64,000 nt of DNA. It comes from an uncultured Candidatus Saccharibacteria bacterium. Lineage in GTDB: Bacteria > Patescibacteriota > Minisyncoccia > Phycocordibacterales > UBA9973. Under the pieces are notes generated by a model. That model was given only the letters and a program-made list of their open reading frames with translations. It was not told where the DNA came from and ran no database searches. The DNA lies in NCBI GenBank assembly GCA_964625065.1, contig CAZUZL010000004.1:11040-75039 (forward strand), in the 5' to 3' direction. Shown piece after piece: positions 3,498 through 61,440 of this stretch (within the stretch, counting starts at the first letter, position 1; each line of letters begins with the position of its first letter). The position numbers and the translations under genes were made by a program.

Positions 3498-3630
3498 GTT
3501 ATTTGGACTGGTTTAAAGGTGCTTGGTATTATTTTCTTTCTTGTATTATACACCTATTTTACTGAAAAGTCAATATATACCCAGGCATGCAAAAACCACT
3601 ATAAATCAATGCTTCCCGGGCGGAAGAATT

Positions 3631-3666
3631 AAAAAAAAGCCCCAGTAACCTAATACTGGAGCTTTT
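3631..3666. terminator. Terminator hairpin that duplicates the one at 2905-2942
   Basis: About 37 bp, gaagaattaaaaaaaagccccagtaacctaatactgg, are identical at 2896-2940 and 3622-3660. The stem carries one G-to-A change. Confidence 0.6.
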
Positions 3667-6185: not shown

Positions 6186-6572
6186 ATGAAAGATTTTGGA
6201 ACTTGGAATAAAGAAAAAATAAACCTTGAAGATACTGGGCACGAAGACCTCTCTTTCCATGAAAGAGAAATATGGTGGTGTTCAATTGGACTTAACATTG
6301 GCGACGAACAAGACGGTAAAAATGAATTATTCGAAAGACCCGTATTAATAATTAAAAAATTTAACAAAAGACTGGCGTGGGCATTACCTATGAGTACAAA
6401 GAAAAAAGATGGTATATACTATCACAATATTGAACATGACGGTAAAATATTTTCAGTTATGTTGTCACAATTAAGGCTATTAAGCACAAAAAGATTTCAC
6501 CGTTATCTTAGAAAAATATCGCCAAATCAGTTTTCCATAATTCAAGATAAATTAATTAAATTGATAAAGTAA
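6186..6572 (+). CDS. PemK/MazF-family endoribonuclease toxin-like protein; no cognate antitoxin gene is adjacent
   Basis: REIWWCSIGLNIGDEQDGKNELFERPVLIIKKFN...LAWALPMST parallels the Kid/PemK core GEIW-x-DP-x-G-HEQ-x-G-x-RP-x-L-I. The -10-like box TAAAAT lies 6 nt before the ATG. Confidence 0.55.
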   Translation: MKDFGTWNKEKINLEDTGHEDLSFHEREIWWCSIGLNIGDEQDGKNELFERPVLIIKKFNKRLAWALPMSTKKKDGIYYHNIEHDGKIFSVMLSQLRLLSTKRFHRYLRKISPNQFSIIQDKLIKLIK

Positions 6573-6605: not shown

Positions 6606-6693
6606 TCGGTTGGCCTAATGGCCATTTGTACATACATTATATACCTAACATATTTTTTGTCAACAAGCTCTAAAATTCCCAGTGTGCAGGTCT

Positions 6694-6727
6694 GCCGTTT
6701 AATGGAACGTCCGGCTGACACGATTCC
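6694..6727. repeat. Palindromic dispersed repeat, copy A (intergenic)
   Basis: gccgtttaatggaacgtccggctgacacgattcc shares the hairpin plus acacgattc core with copies at 14727-14771, 29182-29300 and 54746-54790. Confidence 0.55.
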
Positions 6728-6892
6728 CGGGTGTCGAACACCTGGGTTATCCACATGTTTGGTGTGTTTTACCCTAAGTCGGACTTAGGGCTATATTTTT
6801 ATGGGGTTTTTGCACAGACTCTTTTCTTTTTTAAAAAAATGTGCTATATATGTATGGTTGCTGTGGTGGTGCGTACCGCAGAACGAGCGTTT

Positions 6893-13850: not shown

Positions 13851-13925
13851 GTGCTTATTTTTTTATTACAATAGCACACCTAAACACGCTAGTCAAATGA
13901 AGGTTTTTTTGCTATAGTACCCTAC

Positions 13926-15248
13926 ATGAACATCTTGTCTATAGAAACAAGTTGCGACGAAACCGCAATAAGTATAGTTAGTGCAAACAACACTGACAAC
14001 CCAGATTTTAAAATACTAGGCAACACCGTTGCTACCCAAATAGAATTACATGCACAATATGGGGGTGTTTTTCCGATGATGGCAAAACGCGAACACAGCA
14101 AAAACATTATTCCTGTTTTAGTTGAAACTTTAAAGAAGGCTAATTTATATGTGGAAGAACCTCACCCCCGTCCCCTCTCCATAAACAATGGAGAGGGGCA
14201 AAGTTCAATACAAGAAATTCTAACTCGCGAACCTGAACTATTAGTTTTATGTAAAGAATATTTGCCACATATAGGCAAACCAGATGTAGATGTAATAGTT
14301 GTTACCAGTGGCCCAGGCTTAGAACCTGCATTATGGGTTGGTGTAAACTTTGCCAAAGCACTAAGTACACTGTGGAACATACCTGTGGTACCTGTAAACC
14401 ACATGGAAGGCCACATAATGAGCCCTATACTAACCGCGGACGGCACAATAAACGTTGAATTCCCTGCATTAGCGTTACTGATCAGTGGTGGCCATACAGA
14501 ACTAGTTTTAGTAAACAACTGGATGGACTATAAAAAAATAGGCCAAACACGCGACGACGCTGTCGGTGAAGCTTTCGACAAAGTTGCCCGCATGATGGAC
14601 CTACCCTACCCAGGTGGCCCGCAGATTTCAAAGTTAGCGGAAGAATGGCGGAATCTCCTCCTTAATCAAGGAGGAGTACCCGTAGGGGGAGGTGGTAACG
14701 AAATAAGTCACCACCCCGTCAGTAGTCGGCCTTTGAATGGAACGTTAGGCCGACACGATTCCGCAGAATCGACCCCTCCTCCACAAGGAGGGGAAATTAA
14801 ACTTCCCCGCCCAATGCTACACAGCAACGATTACGATTTTTCTTTCTCTGGTTTAAAAACAGCCGTGTTGTATGCAATTCAAGACATTAAAAAAGACGGC
14901 GGCGTACTAAATGACGACACTAAAAAACAAATAGCCTGTGAATTTGAAAACGCAGCAACAGATGTGCTATTAGCAAAAACATTCCGGGCCATAGTCGAAT
15001 ACGGCGTACAAACACTACTTATCGGTGGTGGTGTTGCTGCAAACAAATTTATTAAAAAATCTTTTACTGAAAAACAAACTGCCGAATACCCAGACCTAAA
15101 AATACTGTTACCTGAAAAAGACTTGTCTACAGACAACGCCCTAATGATAGCCATTGCTGGTTACTATAGGTACCAACACATCATGGCAGGCAACAAAAAA
15201 TTCCCACTAACCTTTGTGGCTAATGGGAATTGGGGGGTTGATTCTTAA
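13926..15248 (+). CDS. tsaD: tRNA N6-threonylcarbamoyladenosine synthase TsaD (Kae1/YgjD), carrying two in-frame insertions of palindromic repeat DNA
   Basis: IETSCDET, HMEGH, SGGHT, AVGEAFDKVAR, YPGGP, DFSFSGLKT and GGGVAANK are conserved. The protein is 440 aa against about 340 aa usually. The extra segments map to hairpin-rich DNA at 14155-14290 and 14650-14800. Confidence 0.9.
   Translation: MNILSIETSCDETAISIVSANNTDNPDFKILGNTVATQIELHAQYGGVFPMMAKREHSKNIIPVLVETLKKANLYVEEPHPRPLSINNGEGQSSIQEILTREPELLVLCKEYLPHIGKPDVDVIVVTSGPGLEPALWVGVNFAKALSTLWNIPVVPVNHMEGHIMSPILTADGTINVEFPALALLISGGHTELVLVNNWMDYKKIGQTRDDAVGEAFDKVARMMDLPYPGGPQISKLAEEWRNLLLNQGGVPVGGGGNEISHHPVSSRPLNGTLGRHDSAESTPPPQGGEIKLPRPMLHSNDYDFSFSGLKTAVLYAIQDIKKDGGVLNDDTKKQIACEFENAATDVLLAKTFRAIVEYGVQTLLIGGGVAANKFIKKSFTEKQTAEYPDLKILLPEKDLSTDNALMIAIAGYYRYQHIMAGNKKFPLTFVANGNWGVDS
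14172..14198. repeat. Perfect 10-bp-stem hairpin inside tsaD (first in-frame insertion)
   Basis: cccctctcc-ataaacaa-tggagagggg. The same stem type occurs at 51927-51949 (ccctctcc...ggagaggg). Confidence 0.6.
14650..14800. repeat. Palindromic dispersed repeat, copy B, inserted in-frame in tsaD
   Basis: Five consecutive hairpins: ctcctcc/ggaggag, ggtgg...ccacc, cggcct-ttgaatggaacgtt-aggccg, cgattccgcagaatcg, cccctcc/ggagggg. The core ggccgacacgattccgcagaatcg matches copy C at 54746-54790. Confidence 0.65.
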
Positions 15249-20349: not shown

Positions 20350-20385
20350 AGTATACCCCGACACTTATTTTTTTGCAAATTGACA
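20350..20385 (-). promoter_or_regulatory. Sigma70-like promoter, TTGCAA-N17-TATACT, with GGGG directly upstream of the -10; leaderless, with the ATG 6 nt after the -10
   Basis: Minus strand reads ttgcaaaaaaataagtgtcggggtatactactgcaATG. The same architecture occurs at leuS (31540-31589). Confidence 0.5.
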
Positions 20386-20513
20386 AAATAGGTGTGGGGG
20401 TATAGCAAATATACGTAAAATTTCAACTTTTATGGCACCGGGCAGATATTGCATATTTAGGCATAAAAAAACCCGATATATTTACATATATCGGGCCAAA
20501 AGAATTTTTGATA

Positions 20514-31539: not shown

Positions 31540-31589
31540 AGTATACCCCCACACCTAGTTTTTTGCAAAAAACTAGGTGTGGGGGTATA
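31540..31589 (-). promoter_or_regulatory. leuS promoter TTGCAA-N17-TATACT embedded in a perfect 48-bp palindrome; the ATG lies 10 nt after the -10
   Basis: tatacccccacacctagttttttgcaaaaaactaggtgtgggggtata is perfectly self-complementary. A related, partly palindromic copy lies at 20350-20405. Confidence 0.55.
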
Positions 31590-32331: not shown

Positions 32332-32970
32332 ATGATACAAGACCAACAAAACCGCGTGCGTAGCGTAGAACGTATTGCTATACGCGCAACTACATGGATA
32401 GGTTCGCCCGCGTCGTTAGTTGTACATACTATTTTGTTTGTACTTGCTTTTTTACTTATACTTGTCGGCTTTCCTGTAGACAAAGTTTTACTTGTTTTAA
32501 CTACCATTGTTTCACTCGAAGCTATTTACCTTTCTATATTTATACAAATGTCTGTTAACAGATCTAACCGCAGACTGGTAGCTGTGCGTAAAGACTTGGA
32601 AGAAATCCAGGAAGACGTCGAAGACATTCAGGAAGATGTGGAGGAAATTCAGGAAGGCGTCGAATCTATCGAAAAAGACGTGGATGAAATTCAAAAAGAT
32701 GTGGAAGAAATTCAGGAAGATGTGGAGGGTATTGAGAAGGATGTTGATGAAATTCAGGGCGACATTGAAGGGTTAGAAGAAGATGTAGAGGATATTTCTG
32801 AAGATACAATAGCCACAGCCGTAGCTGAACGTGCCCGCGACCAAGACATGTTAGTACGTGTAGAATCTGCGTTAACAATTCTGATGCAGGAACTACAAGA
32901 CCTAAAAGCAAAACAAATACCGCAGAAACCAGCTACAAAAAAACCAGTTGCAAAAGTGACAAAGAAATAG
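32332..32970 (+). CDS. DUF1003-family membrane protein with a C-terminal acidic heptad-repeat domain
   Basis: Two TM helices plus SLEAIYLSIFIQMSVNRSNRR, matching the DUF1003 core. Ten tandem heptads of the type E-[ED]-I-Q-E-D-V follow. Confidence 0.6.
   Translation: MIQDQQNRVRSVERIAIRATTWIGSPASLVVHTILFVLAFLLILVGFPVDKVLLVLTTIVSLEAIYLSIFIQMSVNRSNRRLVAVRKDLEEIQEDVEDIQEDVEEIQEGVESIEKDVDEIQKDVEEIQEDVEGIEKDVDEIQGDIEGLEEDVEDISEDTIATAVAERARDQDMLVRVESALTILMQELQDLKAKQIPQKPATKKPVAKVTKK
32599..32808. repeat. Tandem 21-bp coding repeats, 10 copies
   Basis: Units gaagaaatccaggaagacgtc, gaagacattcaggaagatgtg, gaggaaattcaggaaggcgtc and so on encode EEIQEDV heptads. Confidence 0.7.
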
Positions 32971-35576: not shown

Positions 35577-38500
35577 TTAGGCTTCTACTCCACAAGAATT
35601 ATTTATCAACCCTCTAGTAAGTGGGCCAACCAAACCGTCTTGTTTCGTACCCAGGAATTTCTGCATTCTTTTGATGGCACCATTGGTTATTGGTCCAAGT
35701 ATTCCGTCTTCTTTACCTGATGCAAAGCCTAGTCTGTTCATGTGTGCTTGAAGTATTTTAACTTCACTTACAATAGTTTTTGCAAATGAATTGTATTTAC
35801 CATTTCTAGCACCAGCCTTAAGGTTTTGAGTTAGTAGCTGTGTAGCTGAACACTGACCCTTAACGCCTAGTGTATTGTTTGTATTTGTGTTTGTATTATT
35901 TACCACCGCGTATCTACACATTGAAGGCGAACTGATACCGAAAGGTTGGTAGTTTGTGGCTTTTATGTCTTTACAACCAAAAGGCACAGAACTAGAAGTT
36001 GTGGTAGTTGTGGTAGTTGTGGTAGTTGTGGTAGTTGTGGTAGGGGCTTCTGAAACTGATAGAACTATATAGTCGGTATTTAACGAATGGTGTAATTGCC
36101 CTGGAACTATATCAGTACGTAAACCTGTAAAATTAATTGCACGGGTGTTGTATGTAGATTGGTACAGATTATGTTCTGCGTCTGTTGGGTAACTTTCAAC
36201 ATCAGTATGGTATGGGTACTGTGTCATAGCACTAAATGGTAGCGGACCTATTTCGTCACCGAGTGCGTATATGTATGCCTTGTGGTAGTCATTTGTGTAG
36301 TAGATGAAGTCGCGTTCAGTTCCTGGTGCTTGTGCCGGTACTGCGTATTTAAATGCAAGTTCGTCACCTTGAGTCATTATTACAAACTTATCATCATTTG
36401 ATTGAAGTAGTTCTGTAACATCTCCATATTTTGTAGCATTACCTGTTGTTTTATTTGAAATAAATGCATCTGTAACATCACCATATACTGGTTCGGTTAG
36501 AATCATATTTGGATCGTTTGGGTTTGTACGAACCTTACTAGATATTCCACGGAAATGTAAATCTGCATAGTATGGGTTCTCAGATGTAACAGTAATAGCA
36601 GAATCTGGGTTTGTATCTACAGCAAGGTAATCTATATCCCACATACGTTTTGTATTTGTCATTATTAGACGAATAGTATTGTCCTTAATTGTTAAGCCTG
36701 AAAGATCGATAACTTTTGTTTCAACGCCATAAGAATTAAATCTTAAGCGTGACGGGTATGGGGCACCTTCTCTTTGAGTTACAAACACATTGTATTCACT
36801 TGGTACGTCCACAAATTCGCCTGCTTCATTTTTGTATTGAAGTGTATCTGATCCAGATCCACCGGAGAAAGGACCTTCCTTACCTCTTTCGATTAATAGT
36901 TTGAGGTTGGCTGGTGTAGTTATGCCATTACTTAGTTTTATATCAATATACGCTGGAGTTACATTTAGTTTCGAATGGTAATACACCCCATCGTTTTGTG
37001 ATAGTAAACTTGTAACATCCTGCCCATCTTGGTCTATTACTGATACAGGTGCTGGGGCATTTTTCGCTACTGTATGTATCTGTCCGTTTTCACGGTAGTC
37101 TGGGAATACATTTACTGATGCATCGTGGTCGATGATTTTCAGTGAAGTTGAATCAAAGTAGTTTATTTCATTTAATTCAGTTGTGTTTTTAATATCGTAA
37201 AAAGTTTCATTACCTACTGTTCTAGGTACAAGGTTGCCTGACTGAATTTTGGCGTAGCCTTCTGGGTTCGGGTAGTTGTTGTTTGTATTTGGGTCTTTGT
37301 AGAATGGATTCGCTGCCCATGTAGCCCTATCTAGACCGATAGAAAGTGTAGATGAACTTGATGCATCTGTTACGAACACATATTTCTCTCCGTCCCAGAC
37401 GAATATATATGGGCAAGACGATGCATATGGGCCACCGACTTCACTTGTGGCTACATTTGAAGATGCGTCAGTAGAACGAACAATGTAATAAAGTGTGGGT
37501 GTGCCATAAGTAACTGATATAGAATGCGAAGTAACCATTGCATCATCATGAACATAAAAAACTAAATTATTATTGTATTCATGCAATGTCGTATATGTGT
37601 TTGTGTCGAAGTTATATTCAAAGACGGAACCAGCACCACTTACACCACCCTGATTCGCTGTTCCATAAAAATTACCGTTTCTTTCAATCAAAGACCCTCT
37701 TGGATTCGATCCGATAGAATAATCAAAATCATATTGATCTGTAATAGCGTTTGTAACTGGGTCCCAAGCAAATAAAATTCCAGCACCGTTTACCCCACCA
37801 AATATTGAAGTACCATAAAGAATACCACTTATATTAATAAGTGAACCTGAGGGGGCTTCGCCGTCTGTACTATTAAAGTCATAATGCTTTGTTATAGTGT
37901 TGGTAACTGGGTCCCAAGCAAATAATACCCCAAAACCATTGGCCCCACCGTTTAATGTGGTACCGTATAGAACTCCGCTTATATTAATTAAAGAACCTTG
38001 TGGGTATGCACCGTTTGAACCATCAAAATCAAACTGTTTTGTAATTGTATTTGTAACTGGGTCCCAAGCAAATAATGTACCCATGCCACTAACCCCTCCA
38101 TATGTTGTAGTGCCATAAAGAATTCCACCAATATTCAGTAAAGAACCCTGTGGACCTGAACCGTCTGTGGTATTAAAATCATATTGTTTTGTTATAGTGT
38201 TTGTAACTGGGTCCCAAGCAAATAATGTTCCAGCATTATTTGCACCACCACTACCTGTGGTACCGTAAAAAATTCCACTAACATTAATTAATGAACCGTA
38301 CGGGTGTACACCGTCTGTTGTGTTAAAGTTATACTGTTTTGTAATTGTATTTGTAACTGGGTCCCAAGCAAACAAAGTACCTACACTATTTGTCCCACCG
38401 CTATACGTTGTTCCGTAGAATATCCCACTTACATTTACTAATGACCCTTTTGGGTTTGCCCCATTAGTACTATTAAAACTAAATCTATTTGTATATATAG

Positions 38501-40841
38501 ACGTATCAGGGTTATACTCAAAAATAGTTCCCACATCAGAAGGATTACTTTCATTTTCTGTAGTCATACCATAAAACGATCCATTGTATTCTATAAGTGA
38601 CCCGTATGGAGAAGTCCCAAATGCTTTTTCATTATATTGGTCCCAATTAGAATACGCATTTGAAGAATACATTATTTCTGAATTTGCTGGTACGTTTGTG
38701 TCCCAGGTAAGTGTGTGACTAATATTACTGAAAACTAAATTCGAAATCTCAATAAGTGGAACATAATTGTCTGCCTTAATCCATACCCAGGTATTACCAT
38801 CAACATCCATATATTTAGTACCGGTTTTGTCACCAGTTAATGTACAGTCCGTAGAACAGTGTTGTGTAGTAACTTGTTCCCATGCCGATGTAGTGAAATT
38901 GTAAAAAGATATTGTAACCATTTTGTCTGCAGGCACATCACCGTGGCCGGTCCAGACAACACTAAACTTTGGGTTTGTAATGCCACCTGAATCTAGCTTG
39001 ATTTTAAACACTTGCGAATCATAGCCACCGTCAGTTACAGATAGTGCTGTAGTCCAGTAGTCAGAATCAGTACTATATATACTTGCAAGGTTATCAGCAG
39101 TACCTAGTGTACCCGGAGACCCAGGGGTTACAGCTGTATCTGCACTTTCGTATAGTATGTATGGGGTAATACTTGAAGCAACTGCAGTACCTGGACTTAA
39201 ACCAATACTAGCAACAGGGGTAACTTCAAACTTGATTGTTTTATTTACATCATCTGCTGTTAAAATATATGTTATATTTGTAGCACCAGCTATAGCAACA
39301 TTGTTTCTGTACCATTGAAAAGTTGAAACTCCTTCTGGATCATTTTCTGTATCGCTGTATGTGTACTGCCCTGTAAGAGTGGCCCCTAATTCTAAATTGC
39401 CGGAAATAGATACACTTGTGGCAACAGGTATACTATCTGTAGTAGTAACTCCACTACTTTGTAAAAGTACTCCCGGTGTAACCCCCGTATTTGCAACTGG
39501 TTGAACACCGAACTTGATTGTTGTATGAGCATCGTCTGTCGTTAATACATATGTATTTGAATTTGCACCAGATATAGCCACATCATCACGGTACCAAGAA
39601 TACACAGAGGCACCTTCTAGGTCATTATCCACATCTACATATGTATAGTTTCCAGTTAAGGTATCTCCGATGTTTGCAGTGCCGGTTATTGACACACTTG
39701 TGGCAGTCGGCGCAAAGTTTGTTGGATCCCATTCATATATTACACCATGTGATGATGTTCCACCTGCGCCTGTAGTTCCATAAAATTTACTATTGCTTTC
39801 AATTAGTGAAACAGCGGGACTATATACGCCACTATCAGCATAAAAATTAAATTTATTTACAAATATACTGGTAACAGGATCAAATTCAAAAATTATGCCA
39901 TTATTATCTAAACCACCTTGGATTGTTACACCGTACAATTTACTATTACTTATTATCATTGACCCGGATGGGAATTTTCCGTCAGTGCTATCAAAATCAT
40001 GTACATCAGTATATGTATTTGTATTTGGATCATATTCATAAATCACACCAAAACCATTTGCACCATCATATGCTAACCCATAAAATTTACCATTCAACAA
40101 TGTTAATGAACCTATTGGGGTAGACCCACTGATTGGTGTAAAGTCATACTTTTTTGTAGTAATATGAGTAATTGGATTAAATTCAAAAAGGGTTCCACTT
40201 CCTCCACTTAGAGGTGCAACACCATAAAGTTTACCATTACTTACAGCCAATAAACTTGATGGCAATCTTCCACCAGCAACATTATTATAACTTGTGTATG
40301 TATTCGTGTTGGGATCGAATGCATAAATTACTCCTATGTTTGATGTACCACCTTGGGTAGTTAATCCGTAAAATATACCATTATACTCAATCAGTGGACC
40401 ACGTGGGGTATTTCCATTTACACCAATATCAAAATCATACAAATCAGTATATGTACTTGTGTTTGGATCAAATTTAAATATAACACCATACCCATTTGCA
40501 CCACCTTGCTGAGTTGTACCATAAAAAAATCCGTTACTTTCAAGTAGTGGTCCGTTAGGCCTGTCTCCATTTACACCATCGAGGTCATAAATATCAGTAT
40601 ATGTATTTGTATTATTGTCATATTCAAATATTGCACCATAACCATTCGCACCACCTGAAATTGTTGCTCCATAAAACTTTCCATTACTTATTATTAATGG
40701 GCCGTTCATAGAATATCCATTACTGACATTAAAATCATACTTCTTAACAACACCCGCCTCAGCACTCTGTGCCCCTACCGCAAACGAGACCACTATGAAC
40801 GCAACCAATATTAATTTTCGGAAATTTAGTAATTTATACAT
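35577..40841 (-). CDS. Giant secreted surface protein (1754 aa). It contains a signal peptide, two blocks of roughly 45-50-aa beta-propeller-type tandem repeats, two Ig-like repeats, a 550-aa domain of unknown function, a poly-Thr linker and a C-terminal peptidoglycan-binding domain.
   Basis: Signal peptide MYKLLNFRKLILVAFIVVSFAVGAQSA. Repeats of the form ...LYGTTxxGGxxGxGT[LV]F[AE][WY]DPxTNT... occur about 8 times at the N terminus and 7 times centrally. The central block corresponds to exact 150-bp DNA periodicity. A T16 linker is present. The C terminus, ...ILQAHMNRLGFASGKEDGILGPITNGAIKRMQKFLGTKQDGLVGPLT, matches the PG_binding_1 pattern. Confidence 0.7.
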   Translation of the reverse strand: MYKLLNFRKLILVAFIVVSFAVGAQSAEAGVVKKYDFNVSNGYSMNGPLIISNGKFYGATISGGANGYGAIFEYDNNTNTYTDIYDLDGVNGDRPNGPLLESNGFFYGTTQQGGANGYGVIFKFDPNTSTYTDLYDFDIGVNGNTPRGPLIEYNGIFYGLTTQGGTSNIGVIYAFDPNTNTYTSYNNVAGGRLPSSLLAVSNGKLYGVAPLSGGSGTLFEFNPITHITTKKYDFTPISGSTPIGSLTLLNGKFYGLAYDGANGFGVIYEYDPNTNTYTDVHDFDSTDGKFPSGSMIISNSKLYGVTIQGGLDNNGIIFEFDPVTSIFVNKFNFYADSGVYSPAVSLIESNSKFYGTTGAGGTSSHGVIYEWDPTNFAPTATSVSITGTANIGDTLTGNYTYVDVDNDLEGASVYSWYRDDVAISGANSNTYVLTTDDAHTTIKFGVQPVANTGVTPGVLLQSSGVTTTDSIPVATSVSISGNLELGATLTGQYTYSDTENDPEGVSTFQWYRNNVAIAGATNITYILTADDVNKTIKFEVTPVASIGLSPGTAVASSITPYILYESADTAVTPGSPGTLGTADNLASIYSTDSDYWTTALSVTDGGYDSQVFKIKLDSGGITNPKFSVVWTGHGDVPADKMVTISFYNFTTSAWEQVTTQHCSTDCTLTGDKTGTKYMDVDGNTWVWIKADNYVPLIEISNLVFSNISHTLTWDTNVPANSEIMYSSNAYSNWDQYNEKAFGTSPYGSLIEYNGSFYGMTTENESNPSDVGTIFEYNPDTSIYTNRFSFNSTNGANPKGSLVNVSGIFYGTTYSGGTNSVGTLFAWDPVTNTITKQYNFNTTDGVHPYGSLINVSGIFYGTTGSGGANNAGTLFAWDPVTNTITKQYDFNTTDGSGPQGSLLNIGGILYGTTTYGGVSGMGTLFAWDPVTNTITKQFDFDGSNGAYPQGSLINISGVLYGTTLNGGANGFGVLFAWDPVTNTITKHYDFNSTDGEAPSGSLINISGILYGTSIFGGVNGAGILFAWDPVTNAITDQYDFDYSIGSNPRGSLIERNGNFYGTANQGGVSGAGSVFEYNFDTNTYTTLHEYNNNLVFYVHDDAMVTSHSISVTYGTPTLYYIVRSTDASSNVATSEVGGPYASSCPYIFVWDGEKYVFVTDASSSSTLSIGLDRATWAANPFYKDPNTNNNYPNPEGYAKIQSGNLVPRTVGNETFYDIKNTTELNEINYFDSTSLKIIDHDASVNVFPDYRENGQIHTVAKNAPAPVSVIDQDGQDVTSLLSQNDGVYYHSKLNVTPAYIDIKLSNGITTPANLKLLIERGKEGPFSGGSGSDTLQYKNEAGEFVDVPSEYNVFVTQREGAPYPSRLRFNSYGVETKVIDLSGLTIKDNTIRLIMTNTKRMWDIDYLAVDTNPDSAITVTSENPYYADLHFRGISSKVRTNPNDPNMILTEPVYGDVTDAFISNKTTGNATKYGDVTELLQSNDDKFVIMTQGDELAFKYAVPAQAPGTERDFIYYTNDYHKAYIYALGDEIGPLPFSAMTQYPYHTDVESYPTDAEHNLYQSTYNTRAINFTGLRTDIVPGQLHHSLNTDYIVLSVSEAPTTTTTTTTTTTTTTTSSSVPFGCKDIKATNYQPFGISSPSMCRYAVVNNTNTNTNNTLGVKGQCSATQLLTQNLKAGARNGKYNSFAKTIVSEVKILQAHMNRLGFASGKEDGILGPITNGAIKRMQKFLGTKQDGLVGPLTRGLINNSCGVEA
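35995..36043. repeat. 9-bp tandem repeat (gtggtagtt)n encoding a poly-Thr linker
   Basis: Five and a half copies, encoding 16 consecutive Thr on the minus strand. Confidence 0.7.
37600..38500. repeat. 150-bp tandem coding repeats (6-7 copies) inside the giant gene
   Basis: gtaactgggtcccaagcaaataa recurs at 37754, 37904, 38054, 38204 and 38354, spaced exactly 150 bp apart. Confidence 0.7.
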
Positions 40842-40940: not shown

Positions 40941-42503
40941 CTAATTATTTTTATTAGTCTTCTTAACTATTTTAACACTATTTTTTGTATTGGTTTTTTG
41001 GGTTTTCGTATTTTTATTTTGGTATACAACTTGGTGGCTAATTAACGGTGAATGTACACCAGTAGTAGATACATATGACAAATACACTTTATAAGTGCCG
41101 TACTTTTCAGGAAGTATAAAACTTTCTTTATTGGTAAATTTATTATATGGGTGTATTACTTCGTTTTTAAAGTTAGGGTCTAACGACACTATGTACCCTG
41201 CTGTTGTACTAGAATCTGCATTAAAACTTAAAGTTAGTTTGTTTGTATTAGTTTTTTGGTTACCACTGTCTATTATAAAATCTAGAGGTTTATTGTTGTT
41301 TGACTTCGGAACAACTAGAACACCTGACCAACCACTACCTGGGCGTGATACTGAAAAAGTATTAGAAACACCAGACCCAAAACCAATTTTTGACACACCA
41401 GAGTTGTTATAGTTTGCAACCCACACACTACTGTTGTTTGTATTTATAGCTACACCAGTTGCCGCCAATATGTTTGGACTTGTATAATTAGTAATCTGAC
41501 CAGAAAGTGTAACTTTTGAAACAGCAACAACGTTTGCCACCCACATATCAGTTTCATCAAATGTTATACCGTACCCGGCTGACTCTAACCCTGGGTATGT
41601 AGTCATAACACCAGTTGGAGTAATTTTAGTTACACTATAGCCACCATAGTCAGCTGTCCACATGTTTGTGCCATCAAATGCAATGTCTAGCGGGTACCCA
41701 CCTGTACCTGTATATGTAGTCATAGACCCTGCAGGTGTTATTTTTGTAACACTGTCGTCATTAAAACTTGCTGTCCACATGTTTGTACCGTCAAACGCAA
41801 TAGAAGAAGGGTTAGTACCAGTACCAGTGTAGGTGGTAATAACACCTAGTGGAGTTATTTTTGAAACACTTGCATCAGCGTTTGCAGTCCACATGTTTGT
41901 ACCGTCAAAGGCAATGTCCAGAGGGCCTACAAGCGGACCATAATTTGTCATTGAACCATTAGGTGCAATTTTAGTAACATTGTTTCCGCTTACGTTTGCT
42001 GTCCACATGTTTATACCGTCAAAAGCAATACCACGTGGTCCGTCACCTGTACCTGTATATGTAGTAACTGTGCCATCGTATGCAACCTTGTCTACTTCAT
42101 TTGAAAAGTAGTTTGTTACCCACATGTTTGTGCCGTCAAATGCCAGGTTCCACGCACCGCCACCAACACCACCATAAAACGTAGCTGTTGGTTTTAAACT
42201 AATAGAAACAGTATTGTTGTTCGAAGCAACACCAGTGGTTGGTGTAAACGTAGCTGTATAAACCAGTGGGTCTGCAGTAGATGTTAAGTTTGACAAAGTA
42301 CCACCAGTTACCAAAATATCGTTTAATGTAAAATTTATAGGTCGTTCAGTAAAAGCAAAAGTTACAGTAGTTGTGTTAGTGTTTAACATCGTACCACTTA
42401 TACTTATTGAAACATTTGAAGTCGCTGTTGAAGCAAGCAAAATTGTAGATGTGTTTAAAAACAACATCAAAGCAATAAGTGAACACAAAAAGTATTTATT
42501 CAT
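40941..42503 (-). CDS. Secreted beta-propeller repeat protein (NHL/Vgb-like blades)
   Basis: Signal peptide MNKYFLCSLIALMLFLNTSTILLAS. About seven 39-aa repeats of the form GPxxIAFDGTNMWTAxxxxxSVTKITPxGxxTTYTGTG, with 116-bp DNA periodicity. Confidence 0.6.
   Translation of the reverse strand: MNKYFLCSLIALMLFLNTSTILLASTATSNVSISISGTMLNTNTTTVTFAFTERPINFTLNDILVTGGTLSNLTSTADPLVYTATFTPTTGVASNNNTVSISLKPTATFYGGVGGGAWNLAFDGTNMWVTNYFSNEVDKVAYDGTVTTYTGTGDGPRGIAFDGINMWTANVSGNNVTKIAPNGSMTNYGPLVGPLDIAFDGTNMWTANADASVSKITPLGVITTYTGTGTNPSSIAFDGTNMWTASFNDDSVTKITPAGSMTTYTGTGGYPLDIAFDGTNMWTADYGGYSVTKITPTGVMTTYPGLESAGYGITFDETDMWVANVVAVSKVTLSGQITNYTSPNILAATGVAINTNNSSVWVANYNNSGVSKIGFGSGVSNTFSVSRPGSGWSGVLVVPKSNNNKPLDFIIDSGNQKTNTNKLTLSFNADSSTTAGYIVSLDPNFKNEVIHPYNKFTNKESFILPEKYGTYKVYLSYVSTTGVHSPLISHQVVYQNKNTKTQKTNTKNSVKIVKKTNKNN
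41400..42190. repeat. 116-bp tandem coding repeats
   Basis: tgtccacatgtttgtrccrtcaaa recurs at about 41655, 41771, 41887, 42003 and 42119. Confidence 0.65.
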
Positions 42504-51924: not shown

Positions 51925-52025
51925 TTCCCTCTCCTTACCAAGGAGAGGGCTAGGGAGAGGTTCAGATCTAGCTAGGTCAACCTCTTCCGCCTTCGGCACC
52001 TTCTCCTTGGTAATGAGAAGGGCAA
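51925..52025. repeat. Cluster of three GC-rich hairpins of the same family as the tsaD insertions
   Basis: ccctctcc-ttacca-aggagaggg; ggagaggtt...aacctcttcc; ccttctc-cttggtaat-gagaagg. Confidence 0.55.
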
Positions 52026-54664: not shown

Positions 54665-54745
54665 ATGTACATTATACCCCGTAGTTAAGCTTTTACCAAT
54701 AGTAATATGTGAAAAATTATATTTTTGGAATCTTAATACGGATCA

Positions 54746-54790
54746 GGCCGGGTAAATAAGGACATTACCCGGCACGATTCTGCAGAATCG
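54746..54790. repeat. Palindromic dispersed repeat, copy C (intergenic)
   Basis: ggccgggtaa-ataaggaca-ttacccggc hairpin plus acgattctgcagaatcg. It matches 22 of 23 positions of the core of copy B in tsaD. Confidence 0.6.
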
Positions 54791-54835
54791 CAAATAAAAA
54801 ACGCCCTTCAGTTAAACTGAAGGGTCGTTAATTGT

Positions 54836-60610: not shown

Positions 60611-60886
60611 TTATGTTCTGGTAAATACTTTTCTAAGCAGAAAAACACCGACCACCAGCACAGCCCCTAGTGCATACACATGTTGCACACCGTAGAAATA
60701 TTGCACGGGTATAGCATATATATAGTCTGCAAATATACCAACGGCTATATATTCGTATGGTATGTAACGCGCAAAAAAACCAAATCCAACAAACAGAACA
60801 AACAAAACCCACCATGGCAAAACTACTGCCACCAGCAGTAAAAACGCACCCAGTATTAGCCTTTTATAAAGTTTGTTTTCTAGCAT
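60611..60886 (-). CDS. MreD-like small membrane protein
   Basis: A 91-aa polytopic hydrophobic protein immediately upstream of PBP2, in the order typical of an elongasome cluster. Confidence 0.4.
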   Translation of the reverse strand: MLENKLYKRLILGAFLLLVAVVLPWWVLFVLFVGFGFFARYIPYEYIAVGIFADYIYAIPVQYFYGVQHVYALGAVLVVGVFLLRKVFTRT

Positions 60887-60976
60887 TTATTTTTATGCGT
60901 CTTTCTTATTACCTGATTCTGCGGAATCATGTCGGACCAACGTTCCTTTAAAGGGCCGACCCTAATTTGCAACAGA

Positions 60977-61348
60977 CTACTTCTTTTTTCCAAAAAGGCC
61001 TTTTAGTAACAAAAGTGATGCAACCACGATAATACCATAAAACAGCATGATATGTGTAAACACATACAGCCCTGCATTATATGCATAGTATTGTACGTAT
61101 GCCACGGGTCCAGCAAACGGCGACTGTGTTGTAGTTGGCACCTGAACACGCAGGTAGTCTGGCAAACTTTGTTGAATAGCATTTTGCAATGCTTGTTTTT
61201 GGTAGTCTTGGAAAAGTTTAACTGGGTCTACACCCTTAGCCTGGCCTTCTAGTTGTTTTTGTTTAACTGTCCATGTAACTATGTGTTGTTGACGAAAATC
61301 TTCGACTTTTTTTACTGGACCTATAGAAAGTAAATTATTAGTTGCCAT
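60977..61348 (-). CDS. Hypothetical protein with a C-terminal TM helix
   Basis: A 123-aa ORF. Confidence 0.35.
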   Translation of the reverse strand: MATNNLLSIGPVKKVEDFRQQHIVTWTVKQKQLEGQAKGVDPVKLFQDYQKQALQNAIQQSLPDYLRVQVPTTTQSPFAGPVAYVQYYAYNAGLYVFTHIMLFYGIIVVASLLLLKGLFGKKK

Positions 61349-61440
61349 ATATATTATGTTTTATATTAATGTACTTATTATACCCTGCAACTTAAGTTTT
61401 CCAAAACAAAAACCACCTTTTGGTGGTTTTTGTTTTTTTA

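Follow-up and report, generated by a model that had tools for sequence, protein, structure and literature searches.

In this study, we analysed tsaD, an essential gene for tRNA modification, in a 64,000-nt stretch of contig CAZUZL010000004.1 (hereafter the window), which comes from an uncultured, ultra-small Candidatus Saccharibacteria bacterium. We propose, with a probability of roughly 0.78, that the two hypervariable loop-coding sites of this gene have been colonised by several short GC-rich hairpin repeat families that are gained, lost and replaced over short times, a 47-nt two-hairpin unit being the youngest module present here. This reading is based on the multi-copy status of the unit, on the covariation of its stems, on its presence or absence among close relatives in both tsaD and recA, on its in-frame copies in many gene families, on modules that were relocated or inverted, and on the low predicted local distance difference test (pLDDT) values of the corresponding protein loops.

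The tsaD coding sequence (13926-15248, plus strand) encodes a protein of 440 aa that matches the Pfam family TsaD (1e-78) and TsaD entries of the PDB (down to 7.8e-66). Solved TsaD proteins are 327-354 aa long and align with it in three blocks, leaving unmatched the positions ~79-117 (site 1) and ~245-291 (site 2). Thus, the initial annotation was right in describing a protein about 100 aa longer than its orthologs, with the extra segments placed between conserved blocks. The catalytic HMEGH and DN motifs are invariant in an alignment of 29 TsaDs from the Candidate Phyla Radiation (CPR), and are therefore intact. The gene itself looks leaderless: a -10-like TATAGT ends 7 nt 5′ of the ATG at 13926 (window positions 13913-13928) and no Shine-Dalgarno-like sequence is seen.

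Site 2 is occupied by a composite insert (14649-14801, plus strand; aa 242-292, RNLLLNQGGVPVGGGGNEISHHPVSSRPLNGTLGRHDSAESTPPPQGGEIK) that is missing from solved TsaDs and that consists of five consecutive hairpins, all of which had been predicted beforehand. Its folding energy of -70.9 kcal/mol (z = -6.26) was reached by none of 200 shuffled sequences. Only one of its six frames is free of stops and this is the frame in use, in line with the earlier claim that the insertions keep the frame. Its G+C content is 0.54, against 0.41 for the remainder of tsaD. All its modules are described here on the plus strand. Hairpin a (14655-14676; CTCCTCCTT-AATC-AAGGAGGAG; 9 bp) is of a polypyrimidine/polypurine class and encodes LLLNQGG, a peptide cognate to the PLLxEEG motif of other CPR TsaDs; depending on the ortholog, a motif of this type is located at site 2, at site 1 or at an N-terminal site. 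Hairpin b (14691-14715; GGTGGTAAC-GAAATAA-GTCACCACC; 9 bp with one mismatch) encodes GGNEISHHP, and a cognate SEINHHP peptide is found in the distant TsaD P0085. The next two hairpins (hairpin 1, 14725-14754, 8 bp; hairpin 2, 14756-14771, 6 bp) form the 47-nt two-hairpin unit (14725-14771), which encodes SRPLNGTLGRHDSAES, is nested in the older composite insert and matches the covariance model R1 built for this unit with 48.3 bits (E = 6e-14). Finally, hairpin c (14773-14793; CCCCTCCT-CCACA-AGGAGGGG; 8 bp) encodes TPPPQGGE.

The variable part of site 1 carries a hairpin module with a perfect 11-bp stem (14172-14198, plus strand; CCCCTCTCCAT-AAACA-ATGGAGAGGGG) that encodes part of PHPRPLSINNGEGQ, in a region (14160-14210) that folds with z = -5.5. 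This hairpin is identical in two other tsaD alleles (L001 and L005), whereas another module is present in L004 and L002, a two-hairpin unit in L006, and nothing in L007 and L008. Of the extra segment of ~39 aa, no more than 9 aa (27 nt) are encoded by hairpin DNA. The following residues, aa ~93-117 (..IQEILTREPELLVLCKEYLPHIGK; ..ILTREPELL..), are conserved, with invariant positions, in all 29 aligned CPR TsaDs and are predicted by AlphaFold as helices with a pLDDT of ~94; therefore, this part is an ancient extension found throughout the CPR lineage and not repeat DNA. The proposal that both extra segments are made of hairpin DNA is thus correct for site 2 and, at site 1, for 27 nt only. No second copy of the site-1 hairpin was found within the window.

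Within the window, a 22-nt core of the tsaD insert recurs at 54769-54790, as had been noticed, and at 60914-60935 on the minus strand, with two mismatches in each case and no occurrence expected by chance; the hairpin loop motif, previously located near 6694-6727, recurs at 6698-6711. The R1 model detects exactly four copies of the unit in the window. Besides the tsaD copy (scored over 14722-14773, plus strand, 48.3 bits), an intergenic copy at 54744-54792 (plus strand, 53 bits) is antisense to both flanking minus-strand genes and is adjoined by a terminator hairpin (54804-54824). An intercistronic copy at 60912-60963 (minus strand, 48 bits), which the initial annotation had missed, lies in sense between the minus-strand open reading frames (ORFs) 60977-61348 and 60611-60886. 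A variant copy at 6687-6738 (plus strand, 16 bits) has the same hairpin 1 and GACACGATTCC core but a different second hairpin (CCCGGGTGT-CGAA-CACCTGGG); it sits 3′ of a MazF-like gene and 5′ of a tRNA-Glu gene, and a syntenic copy is present in a related genome (L019). The gene directly upstream of this variant copy (6186-6572, plus strand) encodes a MazF/PemK-like toxin (Pfam 2.4e-10).

Public metagenome contigs were scanned with an exact 19-mer (GACAYGATTCYGCAGAATC), which gave at least 120 loci; groundwater and lake sites such as the Hainich wells are the origin of these contigs. Among the matches listed, to which all the following counts of units refer, we aligned, once GC-rich coding coincidences had been removed, 87 distinct units of 44-49 nt. 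Their consensus is (G)GTCGCGY - UUYAAWGGACNNU - RCGCGAC - A - YGAUUC YGCA GAAUCR, or, written as a DNA pattern, GTCGCGY-loop-RCGCGAC-A-YGATTCYGCAGAATCR, with 98.7% of the cells paired. The closing pair of hairpin 2, which is outside the search pattern, is a C-G pair in 48 units and a U-A pair in 38, the remaining unit having neither. Three pairs of stem 1 show 12-19 double changes, and the covariation score was reached by none of 500 shuffles. Furthermore, copies found by the covariance model, and hence unselected by the 19-mer, have GAUUU/AAAUC stems, which represent a compensatory change. The stem exceptions, G-U (13) versus A-C (9), show no asymmetry that would separate an RNA from a DNA structure. 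Altogether, these results indicate that the tsaD unit is one member of a repeat family with a wide distribution in metagenomes of CPR/Patescibacteria.

No described element that corresponds to this family was found. Only four tRNAs matched Rfam 15 over the whole window at the gathering threshold, and searches at E values up to 10 with the region 14100-14900 and with a canonical tuf leader (L067 2080-2280) gave chance-level matches only. The unit had no match in viral contigs, and thus there is no sign of a phage vector. At the protein level, a 49-aa query of concatenated insert peptides returned 231 word-sharing candidates from an index of 5.8 billion proteins, none with E ≤ 10. HMMER with the 51-aa site-2 peptide against 1.84 billion representatives, a method that is poor for short low-complexity peptides, gave as its sole match an unrelated repetitive protein (P0121). 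No description of such elements in CPR was found in the searchable literature. A strict 24-nt pattern of the unit was also run on genome contigs: 17 of the 19 matches (among L009-L027) were discarded as Steroidobacteraceae/proteobacterial coding coincidences, with one match per genome, the one read of these 17 (L012 3755-3778) being GC-rich and devoid of a hairpin. Only the matches in L011 and L019 are real.

It is scarcely conceivable that the tsaD copy is an assembly artefact, that is to say a repeat-induced chimeric join that put an intergenic repeat into the gene. Repeats can mislead assemblers, which is the only point in favour of this explanation and is nothing specific to this locus. 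However, the exact 440-aa protein is on record from both NCBI and Logan, on a 76-kb contig, and the tsaD copy differs from the other three copies of the window (87% identity to the closest). Moreover, the flanking composite insert is present in independent assemblies (L001 and L019) and analogous in-frame copies are found in many unrelated samples.

The comparison of tsaD alleles reveals gain, loss and movement of the modules. P0001, the closest TsaD, has 92% identity and is encoded on a contig of 14.7 kb that shares gene order and coordinates with L019, a ‘Ca. Nomurabacteria’ bin (Kiruna_bin-09228) that is syntenic with the window. In the closest relative (L001), the composite site-2 insert is present and the unit is absent: 11 nt (GTCTAACGACC) stand in place of 53 nt in the window, a net difference of 42 nt that is in frame. 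Distant TsaDs with the same composite insert (P0012, P0019, P0021 and P0085) also lack the unit, and its presence in the window tsaD is therefore probably the derived state. In a 75%-identical relative (L006), the unit is found at site 1 (1870-1921, 42.3 bits), where it is read in another frame as LNGQLRDTISEA. Across eight tsaD alleles of 70-92% protein identity, three unrelated insert types are found at site 2 and three at site 1. At an N-terminal tsaD site, L002 and L003 carry the reverse complement of hairpin c (14773-14793), with 21/21 positions matching, which is read there as SPLLVEEG. In L004, tsaD contains a 36-nt module twice, once at site 1 and once, inverted, at site 2 (97% identity). 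Finally, 16 nt of the site-2 insert of L002 match, near 51986-52001, an intergenic cluster of the window (51927-52001, no strand assigned) that belongs to the polypyrimidine/polypurine hairpin class (CCCTCTCCTT-ACC-AAGGAGAGGG).

Another module, a palindromic element of ~90 nt that we call type B, occupies site 2 in L005 (2190-2290), L007 (1913-2013), L006 (2378-2470) and L008 (5905-5990). It is composed of a 13-bp outer stem, formed by an inverted repeat with five compensatory pairs, and of two covarying inner hairpins with conserved junctions; cognate peptides (SQQGxIR.., FQPENxRTE) are found at site 2 in TsaDs that are only ~50% identical. Over 120 CPR TsaD homologs, the distance between YPGGP and PRPM varies from 17 to 65 aa and several insert types recur. 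Since modules are shared, inverted and relocated, and since unrelated inserts occur among close alleles, both tsaD sites are hot spots with a changing mosaic of hairpin modules.

These comparisons also bear on the possibility that the extra segments are ancient, vertically inherited loops of CPR TsaDs, GC-rich and self-complementary by chance, in which nothing has moved. In agreement with this, 45 of the 120 homologs have at least 30 aa between YPGGP and PRPM, the PLLxEEGVGGGD...HHP...TPPPxGGE composite is found at site 2 in orthologs of ~53% identity, and the REPELL part of site 1 is ancient. However, the same site holds unrelated inserts in alleles of 70-92% identity, the unit is missing in the nearest relative, and modules are found inverted or at other sites. 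The unit is also present at the other tsaD site (L006), in at least ten other gene families and between genes, and convergence is excluded by an identity of sequence and structure over 44-49 nt (E ~1e-14 to 1e-20). We thus regard an origin of the extra segments as ancient loops as very unlikely, and as largely refuted for the hairpin modules.

The unit is not restricted to tsaD. Indeed, 13 of the 87 units were found within long ORFs, in frame and in the sense orientation in every case, and these copies are spread over 12 gene families. The hosts confirmed by Pfam are a PIF1-type helicase, a class II fructose-bisphosphate aldolase, RecG, Dus, a metallo-β-lactamase (MBL)-fold protein, the CCA-adding enzyme and TrmD (for each of the latter two, two orthologs at the same site) and the C-terminal domain of RecA; a P-type ATPase and a cyclophilin were recognised by translation alone. 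In the aldolase, PolyA_pol, TrmD, Dus and RecA_C, the Pfam domains resume on both sides of the unit. Twelve of the 13 copies share one frame and encode a very hydrophilic peptide with the consensus GRASKDTARHDSAES (..R(A/V)S(K/I)D(T)xRHDSAES.), a unit having on average 3.8 stop-free frames out of six. Candidates for an out-of-frame insertion that would split a gene were discarded: units with close ORFs on both sides prove to be intercistronic, as between the MraY-like and FtsW-like genes of L043.

For recA, filled and empty alleles could be compared within one 90%-identity cluster. The RecA proteins P0122 (363 aa, filled) and P0132 (350 aa, empty) are 99% identical and differ by a gap of 13 aa (RASKDGARHDSAE in P0122), or 39 nt at the DNA level, that falls within the unit. 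P0129 also carries the unit; most remaining members of the cluster are 348-350 aa long, and the four of them that were aligned are all without it. The two filled recA alleles differ inside the unit by a compensatory pair. When the filled L077 (1956-2004) is compared to the empty L148 (~960-975; L149 and L150 were also compared), the bases with which the unit begins, GGTCGC, are present in L148, and more distant empty alleles read GGCAAA at this place.

The frame is preserved, and free of stops, in each of the eight tsaD alleles and of the 13 in-ORF units. Between the window and L001, the four substitutions in the shared parts of the insert are all synonymous, and the core shows 60 synonymous and 16 non-synonymous changes. 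The AlphaFold (AF2) model of TsaD has a mean pLDDT of 86.7 and a predicted template modelling score (pTM) of 0.84, the core being at ~90 or more. The pLDDT falls below 50 only at aa 88-91 and 254-287, where no secondary structure is predicted. These segments look like floppy disordered loops on an intact TsaD fold. The hairpin modules are probably translated together with tsaD, and the in-frame inserts may be neutral passengers.

Alternatively, the insert could be an intron, an intein or a translational bypass (‘hop’) element and be excised or skipped accordingly. A very high degree of structure, as in this segment, is also found in the GC-rich hairpin clusters and the bypass elements of organelle genes. 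However, the 13 in-ORF units and the eight tsaD alleles are open throughout, the frame is consistent across hosts, and the changes in the insert are only synonymous. Moreover, no Rfam intron or ribozyme match was obtained at permissive thresholds, and the segment of 51 aa is without splicing-junction residues, is far too small for an intein and shows no take-off stop codon. Such a removal or skipping of the insert is thus extremely unlikely.

The majority of the copies are intergenic, and outside genes the unit has a marked orientation. Among the matches listed, the downstream gene is co-oriented with the unit in 55 of 64 intergenic cases, and, by hand count, the last hairpin 2 of about two thirds of the intergenic copies is followed by a start codon at a distance of 0-10 nt (mostly 0-4) from its closing pair. 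Two leader forms were distinguished: a single unit ending with ..GAAUCR-N0-3-AUG, and a nested double unit, in which a full inner unit sits in the loop of the outer one, followed by RUGAUUUCGCAAAAUCA-(U)AUG. The genes behind these leader units, among which are highly expressed ones and genes for secreted proteins, include tuf (L067 2140-2235), groES (L127), tsf (L138), gap (L105), leuS (L106), a secE-like gene and many genes for signal-peptide proteins; further leader loci are L079 and L107, the latter with four co-oriented copies in 5 kb. At several loci, a -10-like box is found ~7 nt upstream of the unit, which would thus be the entire 5′ leader. We observed no Shine-Dalgarno enrichment in the window, where a 4-mer core of this motif is present at -20 to -4 in two of 57 ORFs of at least 100 aa, the same as in shuffled sequences, starts being crudely set at the longest ATG ORF. 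The metagenome loci show a weak enrichment (96/597 versus 64 in shuffled sequences).

Units were also located in a terminator loop (L030), 5′ of tRNA genes (L046 and position 6687 of the window) and within the loop of a further unit, and some occupy the centre of a different palindrome, with both relative orientations represented (L042 versus L049). The modules thus appear to prefer insertion into hairpin loops, and this preference would explain their pile-up at the same two tsaD sites. A CsrA-type binding of GGA in the loop and a Shine-Dalgarno-like role of AAGGA in loop 1 were considered as ideas only, as was a likeness to box C/D or TIGR-array RNAs, the tandem G-A motif being absent.

The orientation of the copies raises the possibility that the unit is primarily a cis-acting RNA, serving as a 5′ leader to stabilise the 5′ end of the mRNA and/or to take the place of the Shine-Dalgarno interaction at the start codon, and that the in-ORF copies are kept for their RNA structure, through pausing, RNase processing or protein binding. 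We regard this as a possible explanation, on the unlikely side. It would account for the co-orientation of intergenic copies with the downstream gene and for the sense orientation of 13/13 in-ORF copies, for start codons that abut hairpin 2 in single as in nested forms, for the -10-like boxes of several loci, and for the lack of Shine-Dalgarno enrichment in the window. The fact that in-ORF copies stay canonical, with compensatory changes between orthologous pairs, also fits. However, no start codon follows the tsaD copy, the next in-frame ATG being 42 nt downstream; close relatives do without the unit in tsaD and recA; and the host genes are functionally unrelated. Likewise, the G-U and A-C exceptions show no strand asymmetry in favour of RNA and the window copy at 54744-54792 is antisense to its neighbours. 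In addition, a leader function of intergenic copies is compatible with in-ORF copies being passengers. The orientation bias could result from selection at the RNA level or from a strand-biased transposition of single-stranded DNA in genomes whose genes run along replication, and the four copies of the window fit either rule alike, three to one. A broader and more speculative proposal, of which we are rather doubtful, is that the unit acts throughout the Patescibacteria in two ways: as a structured RNA that would make up the whole 5′ leader of many mRNAs and place the start codon just behind hairpin 2, working independently of the Shine-Dalgarno sequence in initiation or stabilisation in organisms almost devoid of such a signal, and as a DNA that lands by duplication in coding sequences, where in-ORF copies, that of tsaD included, would be kept canonical by selection on the structure and act on the host mRNA by pausing, processing or factor binding.

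Several observations weigh against the colonisation of tsaD by mobile hairpin repeats. First, no transposase, target-site duplication or terminal inverted repeats could be attributed to the unit at the tsaD and recA sites compared. The empty tsaD site of L001 is not clean, as it contains GGTCTAACGACC with the mini-hairpin GGTC-TAAC-GACC. Because the junctions are clean in neither of the two filled/empty comparisons, it is ambiguous whether an insertion or a deletion took place in tsaD and recA, and the unclean empty sites (L001 and L148) either are marks left by a loss or represent preferred targets. TsaDs that are only ~53% identical have the composite insert, without the unit, at the same site, and this insert could therefore be an old one that descended vertically, with losses. 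Second, the model gives in-ORF copies scores as high as those of intergenic ones, with the best score of all for the copy in TrmD of L063, and compensatory changes separate the orthologous copies that were paired in TrmD and in RecA. Such a pattern hints that structure is under selection inside genes too, contrary to pure neutrality; being as canonical as the intergenic copies, the in-ORF copies are either young or under structural selection. Among the matches listed, no antisense copy was seen inside a gene, although antisense open frames exist; stop avoidance alone does not explain this lack. Finally, the metagenome loci were chosen with a single exact 19-mer, and the probable translation of the modules is deduced from sequence and model.

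In the mobile-repeat explanation that we favour, the modules would insert mainly into or beside existing hairpins, in loops or at palindrome centres, which would build a nested mosaic at the same two sites. An essential gene would keep only those insertions that preserve the frame, are free of stops and read as a hydrophilic, flexible surface-loop peptide. The module DNA would be transcribed and translated with tsaD, and the resulting disordered Gly/Pro/Ser-rich loop of ~50 aa would be tolerated and not needed.

The initial annotation had compared the tsaD inserts to Rickettsia palindromic elements (RPEs). RPEs, as presented in two later articles that refer to Ogata et al. 2000 (PMC10969869, PMC3733652), are palindromic repeats of ~100-150 bp found between genes and inside unrelated housekeeping genes, in frame, with a family-specific peptide and at positions compatible with the protein fold. 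The behaviour of the unit is indeed comparable, as it forms a multi-copy family, is absent from the closest relative and is present in frame in other, unrelated genes with a conserved frame and peptide. No dedicated transposase is known for either, and both have hosts with reduced genomes. The sites are likewise compatible with the fold, the TsaD insert being in a low-pLDDT loop and Pfam domains continuing on both sides. The unit differs from RPEs by its length of 44-49 nt, about a third, by its occurrence in another phylum, by its strong sense orientation, mostly abutting a start codon, and by the nesting of several unrelated module families at one tsaD site. By its size and taxon, and with no relation expected in sequence, the unit is not regarded as a member of the RPE family.

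Repetitive extragenic palindromic sequences (REPs) are short GC-rich stem-loops of high copy number that are probably transcribed and sometimes lie in replication or repair genes (Di Nocera et al. 2013, PMC3733652), and CGTC-type REPs are without a known transposase (PMC3733652). The unit is also short, GC-rich, of high copy number and sometimes inside genes. The base before the stem-initial GTC is a C (CGTC) in 22 of the 87 units, the others having GGTC or AGTC, and GTAG precedes the tsaD copy only. However, REP loops measure 4-5 nt versus 13-16 nt in the unit, and REPs have no second conserved hairpin. REPs and their hairpin-forming doublets (REPINs) are also mostly downstream of genes, as inverted dimers, whereas the units are mostly upstream, co-oriented and nested. 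With an approximate IS608 TnpA sequence as tblastn query, one homolog (L065 3-383, E = 2e-16) was detected at a distance of 6 kb from a unit, in a set composed of ~150 loci and the window, and no association of REP-associated tyrosine transposases (RAYTs) with units was seen in this set. The unit family is not a member of the REPs.

Intragenic MITEs with open frames (miniature transposable elements with inverted repeats; ERIC, BOX, Nezha/Anabaena; PMC10969869) are likewise small non-autonomous repeats able to form in-frame fusions. The 13-bp outer inverted repeat of the type B insert resembles the terminal inverted repeats of MITEs, whereas the unit has none, its two hairpins being different, and shows no target-site duplication at tsaD or recA. 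Finally, the GC-rich palindromic clusters of yeast mitochondria, as in var1, lie in an AT-rich genome, are polymorphic between strains, and are in frame and translated in an essential gene. These clusters are organellar and their sequences are unrelated to the unit.

Other repeats are present in the window. A perfect 48-nt palindrome (TATACCCCCACACCTAGTTTTTTGCAAAAAACTAGGTGTGGGGGTATA) at 31542-31589, with related copies at 20350-20413 and 61377-61406, resembles promoter-like TTGCAA ... TATAC elements placed back to back. Two copies of a 43-nt hairpin that looks like a terminator (AAAGCCCCAGTAACCTAATACTGGGGCTTT with an A-run) lie 726 nt apart, at 2897-2939 and 3623-3665, and are 98% identical. 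On the minus strand, an ORF of 1754 aa (35577-40841) contains tandem repeats of ~150 nt, with the Pfam domain IG_AIR9 and a C-terminal PG_binding_1 domain, and the neighbouring ORF of 520 aa (40941-42503) has repeats of ~115 nt; both look like large repetitive surface proteins. The region 32569-32810, within the ORF 32332-32970 (plus strand), consists of at least nine tandem 21-nt repeats that code for an acidic heptad (..EDVEEIQ..).

So far, the in-frame colonisation of essential genes by selfish hairpin DNA has been particular to Rickettsia, REPs and MITEs providing scattered cases elsewhere. Its occurrence in CPR/Patescibacteria represents a recurrence in independently reduced genomes, with a unit of only 44-49 nt and with hosts that include RecA, RecG, TrmD, TsaD and the CCA-adding enzyme. 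The unit explains part of the length variation and of the low-complexity loops of CPR proteins, and it calls for caution before such loops are read as functional domains. As its presence or absence varies between proteins that are 92-99% identical, it is also a marker of strain-level dynamics. Finally, the covarying leader that abuts start codons without detectable use of a Shine-Dalgarno sequence may matter more, since it makes the start of translation in CPR directly testable.

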